This document shows, in pieces, positions 22,453 through 64,000 of a stretch of DNA of 64,000 bases; positions within the stretch are counted from its first letter, which is position 1, and every line of letters starts with the position of its first letter. A program made the position numbers and the translations under genes. The notes beneath the pieces were generated by a model. That model did not search any database. It saw only the letters and a list, made by a program, of their open reading frames with translations, and was not told the DNA's origin. The stretch is from a virus, in UHGV virus genome UHGV-0060833, one strand, 5' to 3'.

Positions 22453-22700
22453 TGATTTTTAAAACAGAGAAAGTGAAAATAAAAACATGCCGCAAGGCGC
22501 GGCATGTATCCAATCAATCACTGGAGCTGAAAATATGAACACGGCATTCAAAATCATTATGGCCACGATCTATTTCTGGCTGTTCTCTATCACTTTTGGC
22601 GGCATCGTCGCGCATGGGTAAGGGGAGTATATTAGCCATTTGGAACCCCACGATCTCTTGCGGGTTTAATAAAGAACCCGCAAGAAAAACACGAATTGGG

Positions 22701-25700
22701 CTATATTTTTCCGCCTACCCCTTTAAACTTCTCAATAAACGAGACGATTTTCTGGAAAACTGCCTGTTTTTTCGTTTTATATTGCGGATTCAACGGACTA
22801 AGTTTTGGTAATGTTTCGTTTAATTCTGTGCCATTTTCGGTGGCGTATTCGCGTTTTAAAGACGTGCGAATATAGCGTTTTGCTGCTTCTTCATTGAGAT
22901 TTTCTTCTTTTATCAATGCTTCTGCCTCACGTTGCTGTTCGCGTTGAGCAAACGTAAAGAATGCGTCAATGATGCTGGCTTTGTCCGGTAAGTCATCCAG
23001 GTTCGTTTGCTGAATAAAGTCGATCACCAGGCCCTCTTTAGCACGGTTCCCCAGGCTTGAACGAATTAAGCGTTTGACCTCTTCGATCATTTCGCCTTTG
23101 CCTTTATTTTGTCTGTTGTGTTCGAAAATCAGTCCAAGGATATAATCCAGGTTTATTTCCTGAGACTTCAACAAATCGACCTCAAAAACTACGTCATCCC
23201 AGTCAGTGGTTGATTTATCTTTTTTCTCAGCTTCTTTCTCACGGCGCTGCCAGTCACGAATATCGTTATAGGCAGAACGATAATCCTGAATCTTGCGTTC
23301 AGCAGGGAGACGAATCATTTGCAATTCAGCGAACTTTTCATCATCCACATAATGTTCTGCTTTGAATTTTTCTACCGCAACAGGATCGCTAAGATCGATT
23401 TGTTGCAGGGCTTTCAGCGTGGCAAATTCATCATAGTTTTGCAGGATGTTCTCGGCACGCAGGTATTCACCAAACAGTTTAACGAAGTCTTTCTTCTCTT
23501 TTTCACTTTCAATACTGGCAGGGTCAGGGAACCGTTGTTCCAGTTCTGAAACTATTGCCATAAAGCCGCGCTTAGCTTCACCAGTGGCAGCATCAGTAAA
23601 GCCTTCCATATACTCTGCATAACTCTTTTCTAACACCACATTTTTGGTATTTTTATCACCAAACAGCGTTATGGCATCAATGGTTGAGCGTTCCAGATCC
23701 CGGAAAGTGACGATGTTACCGAAGGTTTTAGTAGCGTCATAAATGCGGTTTGTGCGGGAGAATGCCTGCATCAGGCCGTGAAAACGCAAGTTTTTATCGA
23801 CGAATAGCGTGTTCAATGTTGGAGCGTCGAAGCCGGTTAAAAACATCCCAACGACAATTAACAGATCGATATCCTGATTTTTAACCCGTTGGGCTAAATC
23901 ACGATAGTAGTTCTGAAAACCGTTACTGTCGGTGCTGAAGTTAGTTTTAAAATAGCTGTTATACTCACGAATTGCAGCGTCAAGAAACTCTTTAGCACTG
24001 CTGTCCATTGCGCTGGTATCAAAAGTTTCATCGGAAATTTCACCAATGGCATTTTGTTCTTCATTGGCGGCAAAGGAGAAGATTGTTGCAACACGCAGCG
24101 GTTTATAGGTAGCCGATTTATTAGCTGCTTCCTCTTGTAACCGTTTAAACGTCGCGTAATAGGCTTTCGCGGCATCCACGCTACTCACTGCCAGCATGGC
24201 ATTAAAGCCTTTGGAACCTGGGAAAGTACGGTGGGTCTTCTGGCGGAAGTTATTCAGAATATATTGCGTAATTTCCTGTATACGCATGGGATGAAGAAAC
24301 GCCTGCTGATTTTCAGCCGCACTCAGTTTTTTCTCGTCAGTTTCTGTCTCTAAAGACTTAAACTGTGGCCGCACATCGTTGTAGTCCACCTTGAATTTGA
24401 GCACTTTTTCGTCACGAATCGCATCGGTAATTACATACGAATGCAATTCACGACCAAATACGCTGGCGGTTGTTTCTGAGCCTAAGGCGTTTTCCGGGAA
24501 AATAGGGGTGCCGGTAAAACCAAACTGATAATAGCGTTTGAATTTCTTCTTCAGGTTTTTCTGCGCTTCTCCAAACTGGCTGCGGTGGCATTCATCAAAT
24601 ATAAACACCACTTGCTGATTATATACAGGCAGGTCGCTTTCTGCTTTCATCAGGTTATTGAGTTTCTGAATAGTAGTGACGATAATTTTGTTATCGTCCT
24701 TATCCAGATTTCGTTTAAGGCCTGCGGTATTTTCCGAGCCGTTGACGCTGTCTGGCGAAAAACGCTGATATTCCTTCATGGTCTGGTAATCGAGGTCTTT
24801 CCTGTCGACCACGAAGAAGACTTTATCAATAAAGTCCAGCTCTGTTGCCAGACGCGCGGCTTTAAAGCTGGTCAGGGTTTTACCGGAACCCGTGGTGTGC
24901 CAGATATACCCACCGCTTTCCGGTTTTGACCAGTTCTTCGCTGTAAAGGAGCTCTTAATTTTCCACAGAATGCGCTCGGTGGCAGCAATCTGGTACGGTC
25001 GCATCACCAGTAGCGTCTGACTACTGTCAAAAACGCTGTAGTTCACCAGAACATTCAGCAGAGTATGTTTCTGGAAAAAGGTGGCGGTAAAGTCTTTGAG
25101 GTCTTTAATCAGCGTGTTGTCTGATTTCGCCCAATTCATGGTGAAGTCAAAACTGTTTTTATCGCGCTTTGTGGTGTTGGCAAAGTAACGGGTATCGGTG
25201 CCGTTAGAAATGACAAACAGTTGCAGATACTTAAACAGGGAATTTTCGCTGTTAAAACTCTCTTTGCTGTAACGATGTATCTGGTTGAAGGCCTCACGAA
25301 TCGCTACACCGCGTTTTTTCAATTCAATTTGTACCAGCGGCAGGCCATTGACCAGAATGGTGACATCGTAGCGATTGGCGTGAGAGCCTGCCTGTTCAAA
25401 CTGCTGGATAATCTGCACTTTATTGCGCATGAGATTCTTTTTATCTATCAAATAGATGTTCTCAAGACGCCCGTCATCAAAAATAAAGTCGCAAATATAA
25501 TCGATATGGATTTTACGGGTCTTATCCAGAATACCATCACTCGGGTTGTCCAGATACTGCTCCGTGAAACGCCGCCACTCGCTGTCATTAAACACCACAC
25601 CATTGAGGTTCTGAAGCTGTTCCCGAACATTGGCCAGCATCGCTGACTGTGATTTTACGGATATAAATTCATAGCCCTGATTTCGCAGGTCCTGAATCAG

Positions 25701-25817
25701 TTCCCGTTCCAGGTCCGATTCGCTCTGATAGCTGTCGCCTGTTTGCTCAGCTTTGATGTACTTATCAAGAACGATAAAGTTATTGGATTCAGCAATGGTG
25801 TGTGTTTGATGAGTCAT
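22701..25817 (-). CDS. hsdR: Type I restriction enzyme R subunit
   Basis: 1038 aa; SF2 helicase motifs TTGSGKTLT and [10 protein letters not shown]. Confidence 0.9.
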
Positions 25818-25938
25818 AGCGCATCCTTTGTGCCGTCTGGCAAGGGCCGGAAGGGCGTTAATGGTGACTTCCAGCGTGTAAAAAATAGTCTATATACTGA
25901 CCGGGTGTTAAGGTGGCCCGGTCGGTAGCAATGGTCAA

Positions 25939-27143
<1,205 letters not shown>

Positions 27144-27147
<4 letters not shown>

Positions 27148-28706
27148 TTCTGCACCTCGCAGCCTTCAATTTCAGCCACAATCGCATCAATATCTTTGCG
27201 CAATTGGTCGATTTTGCTGACGGTGGTTTTCAGTTCGGCATTCAGTTCAGTGATATCTACAACTTCGCGGGTATCTTTGGCTTCCACATAGCTGCTTACC
27301 GACAGGTTATAGTCATTCGCGACAACAGTCTCAAACGCAACAGATTTCGCCAGATGAGCAACATCTTCCTTGCTGGCAAATACCTGCATAATTTTTTCTA
27401 TATGGGCATCGGTCAGGATATTGTTGTTAGTCTCTTTTTTGAACAGTTCGCTGGCGTCAATAAACTGAACGTTGGTATCCGTTTTATGTTTAGACAGAAC
27501 CAGAATGTTTACGGCAATGGTGGTGCCAAAGAACAGGTTCGGTGCCAGTGAAATCACGGTTTCGACATAGTTATTGTCGACCAGATACTGACGGATTTTC
27601 TGCTCCGCGCCGCCACGGTAAAAAATGCCCGGGAAGCAGACAATCGCAGCACGACCTTTGGCAGAAAGATAGTTCAGCGCATGTAATACAAACGCAAAGT
27701 CAGCTTTGGATTTGGGGGCCAGAACGCCAGCCGGGGCAAAACGTTCATCGTTAATCAGCGTCGGGTCATCGCTGCCAATCCATTTCACCGAATACGGCGG
27801 GTTAGAAACGATGGCATCAAACGGTTTTTCATCTCTGAAGTGCGGCTCAGTCAGCGTATTGCCCAGCTTGATATCAAACTTGTCGTAGTTGATGTTGTGC
27901 AAAAACATGTTCATACGCGCCAGGTTATAGGTCGTATGGTTGATTTCCTGACCAAAAAAACCTTCTTCGATGATATGGTTATCAAACTGTTTTTTCGCCT
28001 GCAACAACAGCGAACCGGAACCTGCTGCCGGGTCGTAGATTTTGTTAACGTGGGCCTGGCCGTGCATTGCCAGTTGTGCAATCAGCTTAGAGACGTGCTG
28101 CGGTGTAAAGAACTCGCCGCCTGACTTACCGGCATTCGCGGCATAGTTAGAAATCAGGAACTCATAGGCATCGCCGAACAGGTCAATCTGATGTTCGTTA
28201 AAGTCGCCAAGCTTTAACCCTTCAACCCCTTTCAGAACCGCGGCCAGGCGGGCATTTTTATCCTTAACGGTGTTACCCAGGCGGTTACTGGTGGTATCGA
28301 AATCAGCAAACAAACCTTTGATGTCAGCTTCTGAAGGGTAACCGTAAGCAGAACTTTCGATAGCAACGAAGATGCTGTTTAAATCCGCATTCAGTCTGTC
28401 ATTGGTATTTGCTTTCGCAGCTACGTTGCAGAAAAGCTGACTGGGGTAGATGAAGTAGCCTTTAGTTTTGATGGCATCGTCTTTAATGTCATCAGTAATT
28501 ACGCTGTCATCCAGTTTCGCATAACAGATACTGTCATCACCGGCTTCCATATGGCTGGAAAAATTTTCGCTGATAAAACGGTAGAAAAGTGCGCCCAGAA
28601 CGTATTGCTTAAAATCCCATCCATCGACCGAACCCCTGACATCGTTAGCAATTTGCCAGATTTGACGATGAAGCTCTGCACGTTGTTGAATACTTGTCAT
28701 TTTCAT
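27144..28706 (-). CDS. hsdM: Type I restriction-modification N6-adenine methyltransferase subunit
   Basis: 520 aa; [11 protein letters not shown] (motif I) and [11 protein letters not shown] (NPPY). Confidence 0.9.
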
Positions 28707-31365: not shown

Positions 31366-32559
31366 GTGACCTGGGACGATCACAAGAAGAATTTTGCTCG
31401 CCTGGCGCGAGATGGTGGTTACACCATCGCACAGTATGCCGCCGAGTTTAATCTTAACCCTAATACCGCACGTCGTTATCTCCGTGCCTTCAAAGAAGAC
31501 ACCAGGACTGCGGACAGCCGCAAGCCAAATAAGCCAGTCAGGAAGCCACTAAAAAGCATGATCATTGATCACTCTAATGATCAACATGCAGGTGATCATA
31601 TTGCGGCTGAAATAGCGGAAAAACAAAGAGTTAATGCTGTTGTCAGTGCCGCAGTCGAGAACGCTAAGCGCCAAAATAAGCGCATAAATGATCGTTCAGA
31701 TGATCATGACGTGATCACCCGTGCCCACCGGACCTTACGTGATCGCCTGGAACGCGACACCCTGGATGATGATGGTGAACGCTTTGAATTCGAAGCTGGC
31801 GATTACCTGATAGATAACGTTGAAGCGCGGAAGGCCGCGCGCGCTATGTTGCGTCGTTCCGGAGCTGATGTTCTGGAAACCACTCTTCTGGAAAAGTCTC
31901 TTTCTCATCTCCTTATGCTGGAGAACGCCCGGGATACGTGTATTCGCCTGGTGCAGGAAATGCGCGATCAGCAAAAAGACGATGATGAAGGTACTCCGCC
32001 TGAATACCGTATCGCGAGCATGCTAAACAGCTGTTCCGCGCAGATAAGCAGCCTGATCAACACCATTTACAGCATCCGGAATAACTATCGAAAAGAAAGC
32101 CGGGAGGCGGAAAAGCACGCTTTGTCTATGGGGCAAGCTGGCATTGTTAAGCTGGCATACGAACGAAAGCGTGAAAATAACTGGTCAGTGCTGGAAGCGG
32201 CTGAATTCATCGAGGCGCATGGAGGGAAAGTGCCGCCCCTGATGCTGGAGCAAATCAAAGCCGATCTGCGTGCTCCTAAGACAAATGCCGATGATGAGGA
32301 AAGGCAAACTGCCGTCGGTGGCCCTTCTCTTGAAGATCTGGACAAAGTTGCGCGAGAACGGGCCGCCAGCCGCCGCGCTGATGCCGCATTGTGGATTGAG
32401 CATCGTAGAGAAGAAATTGCCGATATCGTCGATACAGGTGGTTATGGTGATGTCGATGCGGAAGGCATATCAAACGAAGCATGGCTTGAACAGGAGCTGG
32501 ACGAAGACGAGGAGGAAGACGAAGAAGTTACCCGCAAACTGTACGGGGATGATGATTAA
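31366..32559 (+). CDS. pacA: Terminase small subunit PacA
   Basis: GTG start with AAGGAAG RBS; [39 protein letters not shown]...; contains the pac site; acidic C-terminus. Confidence 0.85.
31560..31716 (+). other. pac packaging site: 4 + 3 GATC-containing hexanucleotide elements flanking the cleavage region
   Basis: GATC at 31560, 31567, 31579, 31593 (left) and 31690, 31702, 31713 (right), each within TGATCA-like hexamers, inside pacA. Confidence 0.8.
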
Positions 32560-53787: not shown

Positions 53788-55092
53788 ATGGCTATACATG
53801 CAACAACAATCCGTAATTTGCTCAATCAAGGTCCTATGACACCAAGACAATTGGTTGAAAGACTAAGTGTTAGCCAACCAACGATATCTAGAGCATTAAG
53901 AGATCTTGGTGATGAAATCGTTAGGATCGGAAATGGAAGATCTATTCAATATGCTTTACGAGACTCTTTTAGAGGATTCGAATCAGTCCCCATTTATCGT
54001 ATAACTGAAGAGGGGTGTATTTGCGTTCTTGGTACTCTCATTCCGGTGAGGCCAGAAGGCTATGTTATGGTTGAGGAAGGGAAAAATAACAGGCATAGCG
54101 ATGGGTTACCTTGGTGGTTATTTGATATGCGTCCACAAGGCTTCCTTGGAAGAGCATATGCATCAGCATATGCTCTTGAACTTAACCTTCCCTCAAATCC
54201 AGAGCAATGGTCAGATACTGACGTGATCAAAGCCTTACTTAAGCATGGGCATGATGTTGTTGGTAATTTGTTAATTGGAGAGCAAGCACGCACGCATTTT
54301 TTAGAGATGCAGCCTCCTGTTCCTGTTAATCGTGAAAGTGAATATCCTGTATTAGCTTTAGCTGCTGGTGAAGGTGATGTGCCCGGTTCATCTGCTGGAG
54401 GTGAACAACCCAAATTTTGTACTTTCACAGAGCGTGGACATGTATTAGTGAAATTCTCTGCGCCTAACGACACCCCTATAAGTGAGCGTTGGAGAGATCT
54501 CTTGTTTGCTGAACATCTCGCATTAAAAGTTCTGGGGGTAGAAACAGAAGTTTTTGATTATAACGGTCAGAGATTCTTGGAAATTCCCCGATTTGATCGT
54601 GTTGGTCAACTAGGTCGGGTAGGTGTATTCTCACTTCGTGCACTTGATGCAGAATTTGTTGGGAATGCAAGAGCAACATGGCCCTTGCTGGTTAAAGAGT
54701 TGGTAAAAAATAAGTGCGTCCATCCTGATGCGATTATTATAGCAACAAGGCTATGGTCTTTTGGTTTGCTAATAGGCAATACCGATATGCATAATGGTAA
54801 CCTATCGTTTATTAGTAGCCACGGACGCCCATATCATATTGCTCCAGCCTATGACATGTTACCTATGGGTTTTGCTCCACGCTCTGGGGGAGCAATATCT
54901 AATGAGCTTAGAAAAACAGCACTACCAGACTTTGTAAGTCGAAAAATATGGGATGAATCTCTTGAATTGGCTGAAAAATTTTATGCATTGGCCTGTGAGT
55001 CCGACAAATTCTCAGCTAACTTTACTCCATGTTTAGAAGCGCTACGCATCCACCTAGATGATTGTAAGATACGCATAGCCCGCCTGGCATAA
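53788..55092 (+). CDS. HipA-like Ser/Thr kinase with N-terminal winged-HTH (YjjJ/HipH-like)
   Basis: HTH MTPRQLVERLSVSQPTISRALRDL; HipA-like GDVPGSSAGGEQPKF and catalytic-loop-like IGNTDMHNGNLSF; by-eye GC lower than flanks. Start may be 53746 or 53728. Confidence 0.75.
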   Translation: MAIHATTIRNLLNQGPMTPRQLVERLSVSQPTISRALRDLGDEIVRIGNGRSIQYALRDSFRGFESVPIYRITEEGCICVLGTLIPVRPEGYVMVEEGKNNRHSDGLPWWLFDMRPQGFLGRAYASAYALELNLPSNPEQWSDTDVIKALLKHGHDVVGNLLIGEQARTHFLEMQPPVPVNRESEYPVLALAAGEGDVPGSSAGGEQPKFCTFTERGHVLVKFSAPNDTPISERWRDLLFAEHLALKVLGVETEVFDYNGQRFLEIPRFDRVGQLGRVGVFSLRALDAEFVGNARATWPLLVKELVKNKCVHPDAIIIATRLWSFGLLIGNTDMHNGNLSFISSHGRPYHIAPAYDMLPMGFAPRSGGAISNELRKTALPDFVSRKIWDESLELAEKFYALACESDKFSANFTPCLEALRIHLDDCKIRIARLA

Positions 55093-62130: not shown

Positions 62131-62412
62131 TTAAGAGGCATTTCTATTGAGGTACGAATCGATAATCCTTTGTAACTTTTCAAGAATGAGCCTGTTATTG
62201 ATGCTGCAAATAATAGTCACGCAATTCTGAAGACTTTCATCCATACCCTTATATTCCGCGAAATACATGCCTATAAAGCCTGCAAGTACGGCAGCAATAC
62301 ACTCGGCCATCAATTGCCTGCATGACGCTTCGTAACGTTTTTCACGAACCCCATTCAGAAACGAATGCACCCCGCCAAGGATGGAGAGGAGCATTATTGT
62401 GAAATCACACAT
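62131..62412 (-). CDS. Small holin-like membrane protein
   Basis: 93 aa; hydrophobic segments TIMLLSILGGVHSF and AAVLAGFIGMYF. Confidence 0.45.
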   Translation of the reverse strand: MCDFTIMLLSILGGVHSFLNGVREKRYEASCRQLMAECIAAVLAGFIGMYFAEYKGMDESLQNCVTIICSINNRLILEKLQRIIDSYLNRNAS

Positions 62413-62539
62413 AACTATTTCCTTAATAGTGAATTAAATATCATTGGGAAACGGTATGTACTTTGTGATTTCCACACATACTGGTTTTTGTTAATTAAAA
62501 TCCGCAGCTTGCTATAAATAACGATAGTGAGCAGAAAAT

Positions 62540-62850
62540 ATGCTAATAGGCTATGTACGCGTATCAACAAATGAACAAAACACTGCTTTACAACGAAACG
62601 CTCTTGAAAGCGCAGGATGTGAGCTAATTTTTGAGGACAAGGCGAGTGGAAAAAAGGCTGAACGACCAGAGTGAAAAAGGCTTTTGATAGGTAAACTCTG
62701 GTCGTATGAAAGTTAAATTTGCGTGGGTGCAGCATGCGCTCACTCTTGAGGCATGAACGGTAATCATCTGATAACTTGTAGCTCGATTATCCGGACGCAC
62801 TGGAACCAGTCGATGCTTCCAGCGATCCAGATATTTCATTAAATGGACTA
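62540..62850 (+). pseudogene. cin: Decayed cin-type serine DNA invertase
   Basis: [44 protein letters not shown] then TGA; shifted frames still read TLVV.KLNLRGCSMRSLL (cf. TLVVWKLDRLGRSMKHLISL); 3' part missing, U gene ends at 62848. Confidence 0.8.
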
Positions 62851-63282
62851 CGCCTCCGGGAACGCTGGCCAATTGACATCTGGTGCAGTGCTGGTATCCG
62901 TTGCGGTCACCGCATCGATATAATCCAGCACAGCGTTAAGACGGGTGGTTTCAGCCTGCGTAAGATTCCGCCCGGCCTGTAATTTCAGTTGAATAAGACT
63001 AATGGAAGCCATTGCGGTATCAATCAGCGACTGTTTTTTCTGTTCAGCGTCAGCTACCAGTTCATCATGAGAACGTTCCGGAGTGGGTGGCGCAGTAAAT
63101 CCCCCGTCTGAATACCCCCAGCCGATTCCGGGCTGCTCACTGATATCAGAAATATTAATGAGCTGCTGATTATCCGGCACTGTGAATTCAGCCTCGCCAT
63201 CCCAGACAATGACATTCACAACCATCCCATTTTCAATAACTGCATATGACGTATTCATTATGCAAACTCCTCGATAATACAA
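62848..63282 (-). CDS. Tail fibre assembly chaperone (U/Tfa-like)
   Basis: 144 aa; overlaps the 3' end of the fibre gene, as in Mu/P1 S-U pairs. Confidence 0.7.
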   Translation of the reverse strand: MYYRGVCIMNTSYAVIENGMVVNVIVWDGEAEFTVPDNQQLINISDISEQPGIGWGYSDGGFTAPPTPERSHDELVADAEQKKQSLIDTAMASISLIQLKLQAGRNLTQAETTRLNAVLDYIDAVTATDTSTAPDVNWPAFPEA

Positions 63283-64000
63283 ATCCCTGAAGCGCCTTTC
63301 CCGCCCGTCATACTGGTTCCGCTATAACCGGCATCGTATGCGCCACCTCCGCCTGAACCATATGCTTTACCGATAACACCACCGCCAGCGCCTGCACGTC
63401 CACCGCCGCCCCAGTACGATGTTCCGCCTTCACCGCTGACGCCGATATTTCCGGACTGACCGTCGCCTCCATGTCCACCAGTGATGCGGATATCGCCAGT
63501 ACTCGGCACACCGCCGTTACCACCGTTTGTGTTTGTGACTCCTGACTTTCCGCCGCCTGAGCCACCAGGAGCAATTAACGATGCGAATACACTATTCCCG
63601 CCACTGGTGCCGTTCGTCGCACTAACACCACCGGCCCCACCTGCGCCGATAGTGACTGGATAACTATTCTGTGTCGGGGTCATTATTGAAATTATTGTCC
63701 CACCGGCCCCACCGCCAGCACCGAAAAACGTCTCGCTGCTCGAGTATGCCTTGCAGCCGCCCCCTCCGCCACCGCCGCCCGTTATTGTGACCCTGATCCG
63801 TTTTGTTCCTGGGGTTGGGGTATACGTACCTGATGAAGTGAAAACCTGGGTATTCACCAAACGCCCAACATATCCGCTTGAATCGCTCAGGCCAAGGTTA
63901 GCAGCAGTTAAAGTAATATTTGCAGAACCATCAAACTTAACACCGTTGATAGTGCGTGCAGTCTGTAGTTTCGTTGCGGTTGCGGCATTACCGGTAGTGC
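63258..64000 (-). CDS. Tail fibre protein, C-terminal variable part (5' end beyond window)
   Basis: Frame open to the window edge (…ATKLQTARTINGVKFDGSANITLTAANLGLSDSSGYVGRLVNTQVF…) followed by Gly-rich repeats; ORF-track start at 63860 is an internal TTG. Confidence 0.75.
   Translation of the reverse strand, partial: TTGNAATATKLQTARTINGVKFDGSANITLTAANLGLSDSSGYVGRLVNTQVFTSSGTYTPTPGTKRIRVTITGGGGGGGGCKAYSSSETFFGAGGGAGGTIISIMTPTQNSYPVTIGAGGAGGVSATNGTSGGNSVFASLIAPGGSGGGKSGVTNTNGGNGGVPSTGDIRITGGHGGDGQSGNIGVSGEGGTSYWGGGGRAGAGGGVIGKAYGSGGGGAYDAGYSGTSMTGGKGASGICIIEEFA

Follow-up and report, generated by a model that had tools for sequence, protein, structure and literature searches.

The cin locus beside the tail-fibre genes of this P1-like phage-plasmid is very probably a non-functional scar left by deletion of the Cin/C-segment inversion switch. 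The anatomy of the scar and its lesions were observed directly, as was the absence of the other parts of the switch from a near-identical complete plasmid. A 5′ stub of the invertase gene survives next to one intact set of fibre genes and a single crossover site. The original prediction held that cin had decayed to a pseudogene and that host-range switching by C-segment inversion had probably been lost. We find that the invertase, cixL, Sv′ and a functional U′ are all absent, so that every part required for switching is gone save one cix site.

Source of the DNA and its near-identical plasmid

The window is the whole stretch of DNA that was analysed, 64,000 nucleotides of virus genome UHGV-0060833, and it derives from a P1-like IncY phage-plasmid. 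Outside two IS-containing stretches that are present only in the plasmid, it is 99.997–100% identical to the Escherichia coli plasmid p2017-03-3CC_3 (NZ_AP027786.1, IncY, 95.8 kb), which we refer to as the twin plasmid. One plasmid-only stretch, of ~1.7 kb, is an IS91-family region and the other, of ~1.3 kb, an ISVsa5 copy; they correspond to window junctions 1124/1120 and 31662–31671. Since both are missing from the window, its source was a distinct isolate, closely related to p2017-03-3CC_3. The ~29 kb of the window's own element that lie beyond the window were judged from the twin plasmid, which served as the view past position 64000; a position in the corresponding locus (L001) equals the window position minus 49,999.

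The final 10 kb of the window are collinear with P1, running through ddrB, ddrA, darA, hdf, lydB, lydA and lydC (minus strand) to the cin position and the tail-fibre genes, and over the stretch that includes lydC, as far as window position 62744, identity to P1 is 97%. Two further gene sets were noted on this backbone. A HipA-family toxin gene, annotated yjjJ (window 53788–55092, plus strand, from L001 3789–5093), adjoins hxr and ddrB and sits where P1 has IS1/isaB, a site that is one known variable region of P1-like plasmids. A type I restriction-modification system (hsdM, hsdS and hsdR) adjoins phd-doc at window ~22700–28700, a placement offset-mapped from positions 66169–72168 of the twin; P1 has the type III EcoP1 res-mod genes instead.

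The preserved 5′ end of cin

The features of the locus, in window coordinates, are as follows.

62131–62412, minus strand: lydC, holin gene and left-hand P1 backbone neighbour of cin (93-aa ORF; lydC in P1, holin family protein in the twin plasmid)
62418–62501, plus strand: putative cin promoters P2cin (62418–62444) and P1cin (62469–62501), placed from the P1 annotation with 0 mismatches
62529–62531: cin ribosome-binding site, identical to P1
62540–62674, plus strand: truncated cin ORF, 44 codons and a TGA stop, with the catalytic-serine motif YVRVSTNEQ (ORF, Pfam and P1 Cin match)
62558–62629, no strand assigned: predicted orphan recombinational enhancer of Cin inversion, inside the 5′ coding region of cin (72/72 against the enhancer of P1, NC_005856)
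62675–62744, plus strand: decayed cin, equivalent to P1 cin nt 136–217, codons ~46–73 (pairwise alignment)
62745–62770, no strand assigned: 26-nt junction, outside both the cin and the tfa alignments
62771–62876, plus strand: relic of the 3′ end (codons ~114–147) of a convergent tail-fibre-assembly gene of tfa′/U′ type (blastn, tblastn and DNA alignment)
62848–63258, minus strand: U, intact 136-aa tail-fibre assembly protein (ORF), its start codon overlapping the S stop (TAATG)
63258–64000, minus strand: 3′ end of S, the variable part with a glycine-rich C-terminal domain (ORF); the gene leaves the window

The stub had been read as the N-terminus of a Cin/Gin/Hin invertase that runs for 44 codons into a stop, and this reading is borne out by profile and protein comparison. 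The ORF at 62540–62674 matches the Pfam Resolvase family (PF00239) over profile positions 2–51 of 145 (E=3e-11) and residues 1–49 of P1 Cin (E=3e-28), and the catalytic serine is present in its N-terminal YxRVSTxxQ motif, in a segment identical to P1 Cin. Pairwise DNA alignment places window 62540–62744 (plus strand) against nt 1–217 of P1 cin. The first 107 nt of the stub are identical to P1, and nt 1–121 agree at 119/121 positions. Identity to P1 extends upstream, where the 127 nt 5′ of the stub hold P2cin, P1cin and the ribosome-binding site in P1-identical form; by the same measure of sequence identity, the Fis-dependent recombinational enhancer is present in the 5′ coding region of cin. 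A scan of 62380–62900 for sigma-70 promoters and terminators returned nothing exceeding the shuffled background.

Lesions and loss of the 3′ part

Downstream of this preserved segment the gene is broken. Compared with P1 cin, the stub has 36 differences over 217 nt, among them five disabling lesions: a TTA to TGA change at L45 (62672–62674), which creates the stop; a 12-nt deletion after 62677; a 1-nt deletion near 62692; a TGG to TGA change at W61 (62707–62709); and a 1-nt insertion at 62739. Identity to P1 falls to 71% from nt 122 on. The decayed segment itself (62675–62744) is 71% identical to P1 cin, 73.5% identical to D6 cin and 87% identical to the scar of the D6-like plasmid p1_035148, while window 62600–62744 aligns, at about 78%, with intact recombinase genes from other plasmids. 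It had been proposed that shifted frames downstream of the stop still read Cin residues and that small indels were responsible. The string TLVV*KLNLRGCSMRSLL is found as described, and it is genuine cin rather than chance because 62540–62744 aligns, with indels, to P1 cin nt 1–217 and because intact recombinase genes align there too. The 25–30% divergence of the decayed segment from P1 and D6 cin may be due to decay or to a divergent ancestral allele. When 5,426 E. coli genomes were searched for an allele nearer to the decayed stretch (62650–62775) that still encodes a functional invertase, only further scar copies were found.

No uninterrupted invertase ORF of ~180–200 aa is present, the stop following codon 44, and the PF00239 catalytic domain is incomplete, DNA homology ending at cin nt 217. 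Searches by tblastn with Cin and with the invertases of pro483 and SKA5 gave no match past residue ~74 in either the window or the entire twin plasmid, and the C-terminal helix-turn-helix DNA-binding domain was likewise absent from both by tblastn. The original prediction that the 3′ two-thirds of cin are missing therefore stands, as does the end of U at 62848, but part of the sequence that had been taken as decayed cin is something else, 62771–62876 being the relic of a tfa gene. Altogether, the element lacks cin codons ~74–186, cixL and the entire Sv′/U′ cassette, where the parts beyond the window were judged on the twin.

The stop and frameshifts could in principle be sequencing or assembly errors, or be recoded, so that cin is really intact. 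One lesion does adjoin a run of A residues (62674–62678), a context prone to indels. Such errors would nevertheless have to account for five independent lesions, each of them disabling, for 36 differences across 217 nt, and for a scar (62600–62900) that recurs at 99.7–100% identity in 14 independently sequenced complete genomes and as a variant in 59 more. Coding sequence for the C-terminal two-thirds of the protein (the 3′ 340 nt of cin, with the DNA-binding domain) is absent, which already refutes this explanation, and we give it practically no credence. A cin gene that is truly broken is the reading followed below.

The junction and the tfa′ relic

The short junction that follows the cin homology has a weak MAFFT placement against an internal tfa′ stretch of the Shigella flexneri STLIN_12 plasmid. 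Beyond it, distant blastn matches to P2-like and Mu-like phages begin at 62771, 78 nt before the U stop, and the matching phage region is a second tfa gene, convergent to and overlapping the U homologue. The relic of this second gene is interrupted by stops and by a 5-nt insertion, and from 62848 on it coincides with the 3′ end of U. In translated comparison by tblastn, 62746–62835 matches residues 107–136 of the pro483 Tfa protein at 60% identity (E=8e-7), the window reading LRHER*SSDNL*LDYPDALEPVDASSDPDI and pro483 Tfa LKGEELAQYNLWLDYLDALELVDTSSAPDI.

We considered whether the relic marks the direct right-hand end-point of the deletion, as a cin′-′U′ fusion. This is weakened by plasmid pSBF45b, in which the switch is intact and 54 nt of the relic are nonetheless present 3′ of U; on this comparison the relic may instead be carried along with the U cassette.

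A fusion of another kind is found in the STLIN_12 plasmid (CP058777.1, L007 5939–6406), in which cin, to about codon 43–58, is joined to a pro483-type tfa. The product is a continuous 155-aa chimeric ORF made up of the Cin N-terminus, a frameshifted linker and the C-terminal ~90 Tfa codons. As this fusion is independent of and different from the one in the window, deletions between cin and a neighbouring tfa′ have occurred more than once.

A single set of fibre genes

U is an intact ORF that matches the Caudo_TAP family (PF02413) over profile positions 25–131 of 131 (E=4e-22) and is 69% identical, end to end, to the 138-aa Tfa of lytic phage Goslar. RefSeq PGAP calls U/tfa (window 62848–63198; L010 5749–6099) a partial pseudogene with a ‘missing N-terminus’, which is probably an artefact of longer reference Tfa proteins. 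The same label recurs in many plasmids, pSBF45b among them.

In the twin plasmid S is one continuous gene of 1,474 aa, annotated as an intact tail fiber protein and followed by U, with Pfam matches to Gly_rich_2 (PF21722) and Gp34_trimer. It exceeds P1 S by about 490 aa. From window 63796–64000 to L001 ~15930, S contains seven repeat copies with a 120-nt periodicity, arranged in three clusters and encoding ‘GNAATATKLQTARTIGGVSFDGSANI’ motifs; the amount of repeat appears to vary among related plasmids. An apparent second fibre place in the twin record proved to be these internal repeats of S and not a second cassette.

The remaining parts of the switch

The one crossover site that remains is cixR, a perfect (26/26) copy of the P1 site located inside S at the Sc/Sv junction (L001 16310–16335, equivalent to window ~66309–66334 and thus past the window end). 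Searches with core and relaxed patterns found no further cix-like site in the window or the twin plasmid, and a relaxed palindromic quasi-cix pattern also found only cixR, with ~1 chance match expected at the searched length. No inverted repeats of at least 25 nt lie between R and lydC in the twin plasmid, and no second U, Sv or serine recombinase was found in its 95.8 kb. P1 homology in the twin ends at cin nt 217 and restarts about 75 bp inside cixR. In place of two inverted cix sites there is thus one cixR, present in the twin just past the window end, and in place of two opposed Sv-U cassettes with inverted-repeat ends there is a single S ORF and a single U. The statement that only one U and one fibre C-terminus exist, with no inverted duplicate, had been made from a window that stops inside S; it holds on the twin plasmid as well. 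An intact invertase accompanied by inverted cassettes and cix sites was not found in NZ_AP027786.1.

P1 and D6, in which cixL and cixR are annotated, and pSBF45b served as positive controls for an intact switch. The same tests detected the full switch in P1 and pSBF45b, which makes the negative results for the window's element informative. Inversion requires two sites in inverted orientation, and it is impossible here, where the invertase is missing and there is a single crossover site and a single cassette.

A switch operating in trans would circumvent the first of these deficits, if DNA between cixR and a second, outside site were inverted by an enzyme from another source, be it a gene in the unseen part of the element or a host prophage supplying a Pin/Gin-type invertase. 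Din-family invertases are interchangeable and Pin/Gin-type enzymes can substitute for Cin; moreover, both cixR and the enhancer survive in perfect form and part of the element lies beyond the window. The demand for two inverted sites applies equally to an enzyme supplied in trans, however, and the twin plasmid has neither a second cix-like site nor inverted repeats of at least 25 nt around the fibre genes, nor does it contain another Sv/U cassette or serine recombinase. We therefore consider a switch in trans highly improbable and retain the interpretation of a deleted, non-functional switch.

Distribution and origin of the scar

Among PLSDB plasmids, 44 carry the scar junction, which also occurs in 73 of 5,426 complete E. 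coli genomes. Of these 73, 14 have the form seen in the window (at least 99% identity) and 59 a variant at about 87%. The variant is found on D6-like backbones, for example p1_035148. On this evidence the decayed part is an old scar common to many plasmids and not recent private decay. Three scar copies were on records labelled as chromosomes (~5.2 Mb), including NZ_CM148631.1 at 4446491 and NZ_CP097001.1 at 499089, which suggests integrated P1/D6-like elements or assembly joins.

A four-way alignment divides the stub into two parts. Over the first 121 nt each stub resembles the functional allele of its own backbone, the window matching P1 at 119/121 positions and p1_035148 matching D6 at 117/121. 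Over nt 122–217, the stubs of the window and p1_035148 are 71–78% identical to either functional allele and 87% identical to each other, whereas the functional P1 and D6 alleles are 92% identical to one another. Both stubs have an 11–12-nt deletion, the W61 stop and the junction. A further combination occurs in pSvP1, whose stub consists of a P1-type 5′ end and the variant 3′ scar. Because the decayed half is held in common with most of its lesions and the 5′ 121 nt are backbone-specific, the decayed part appears to have had a single origin and to have spread, or undergone gene conversion, by homologous recombination with a crossover inside the 5′ end of cin. On the right-hand side, the window type and the D6-like variant remain similar as far as a boundary in Sc, about 600 nt past cixR. 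The whole locked cassette (stub, tfa′ relic, U, glycine-rich Sv and cixR) could accordingly be a module of single origin that moved among P1-like IncY, D6-like and pSvP1-type elements by homologous recombination, with crossovers in the first ~120 nt of cin and in Sc. We put this forward tentatively, as a possibility that we are slightly more inclined to doubt than to accept. If it were true, loss of host-range switching would itself be horizontally transmissible, and might be favoured in lineages that live mainly as plasmids.

This pattern also bears on whether the stub has been kept for a role of its own, such as encoding a 44-aa peptide, driving transcription into the fibre region or providing a homology arm for cassette swaps. 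Conservation of the promoters, the ribosome-binding site and the first 107 nt in P1-identical form is what such a role would predict, and the occurrence on three backbones of a 5′ 121 nt that equals the local functional allele, joined to a common decayed 3′ part, shows that the stub has recombined repeatedly. The identity to P1 is explained equally well by recent exchange with intact alleles, however, and use of the stub for crossovers follows from its homology, with no evidence of selection. The length of the ORF also varies between variants, at 44 versus about 51 codons, and we know of no activity of a 44-residue piece of the catalytic domain. A retained function is consequently unlikely, and we continue to regard the stub as a remnant of the deleted switch.

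A possible sequence of events starts from an ancestor with the P1 layout, in which cin, cixL, Sv′ and U′ would have been followed by the convergent series U, Sv, cixR and Sc. A deletion would then have removed cin from about codon 74 on, together with cixL and the second fibre cassette, and the cin stub left behind may have decayed afterwards or may have decayed already. The remnant comprises the putative cin promoters, ribosome-binding site and enhancer, 44 readable codons, ~70 nt of broken cin, a ~100-nt tfa relic, and intact U and S. Fibre genes fixed in one orientation would leave the phage with a single fibre type bearing a glycine-rich tip. This phage-plasmid, and the ~1% of complete E. 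coli genomes that carry the scar, would thus have one fixed tail-fibre type with no alternation, which should narrow host range relative to P1. The scar may be viewed as a minor illustration of cassette replacement and deletion shaping the hypervariable lydC-cin-S region of P1-like elements, and it is of little importance past annotation.

Comparison with known systems

Defective inversion regions have precedents among P1-like elements. Truncated or altered cin and incomplete C segments were reported in three P1-like plasmids by Venturini et al. (2019, Sci Rep; PMC6906374), including a ‘partial invertase orf’ in pSvP1, and the tail switch was judged probably impaired or lost. A survey of 77 P1-like phage-plasmids lists lydC-cin-Sv′-U′-U-S as hypervariable (PMC9603915), and in D6-like plasmids the tail-fibre inversion region is the most divergent region (PMC6799933).

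In P1 itself (NC_005856) the order is cin, cixL, Sv′ and U′ on the plus strand, convergent with U and Sv on the minus strand, followed by cixR, Sc and R. The window's element occupies the same site, between lydC and the R-S tail-fibre operon, with cin and U convergent; no difference from P1 is seen in the cin promoters, the ribosome-binding site, the enhancer or the first 107 nt of cin, and cixR at the Sc/Sv junction matches at 26/26 positions. It differs in that cin is decayed after codon 44 and that the cixL, Sv′, U′ and 0.6-kb inverted repeats of P1 are missing, while in place of P1 Sv and U it has a glycine-rich fibre tip unrelated to that of P1 and a Tfa resembling that of Goslar.

The closest counterpart among the described plasmids with a damaged switch, pSvP1 (NZ_MN510446.1), has the same scar (deletion, W61 stop and tfa′ relic) and a related glycine-rich fibre cassette. 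Its scar is the variant form, with an extra 18-nt deletion and without the codon-45 stop, and its backbone is heavily IS-rearranged. The unlocked state is represented by pSBF45b (NZ_CP067234.1), whose U and fibre tip are 87% identical to those of the window and which has the same backbone neighbours and 54 nt of the tfa′ relic; in contrast to the window's element, it retains a cin of 186 aa, a pair of cix sites in inverted orientation, inverted repeats of 201 nt and a second U′-Sv′ cassette. More distantly, the P2-like and Mu-like prophages pro483 and SKA5 have modules in which stf-tfa is convergent with tfa′-stf′ and accompanied by a DNA invertase. The 3′ half of the window's U together with the relic is 81–84% identical to their overlapping convergent tfa/tfa′ pair, but both tfa genes and the invertase are intact there, whereas in the window the second tfa is reduced to its final ~35 codons, with stops.

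Set against these systems, a dead cin and a locked fibre are ordinary and already known biology, and the stub is already a pseudogene in RefSeq, where PGAP marks 62540–62668 in the twin plasmid as an incomplete recombinase. Our analysis contributes only a precise map of the scar, the recognition of the tfa′ relic and of cixR and the enhancer as orphans, and a mosaic pattern that speaks for recombination inside the stub.
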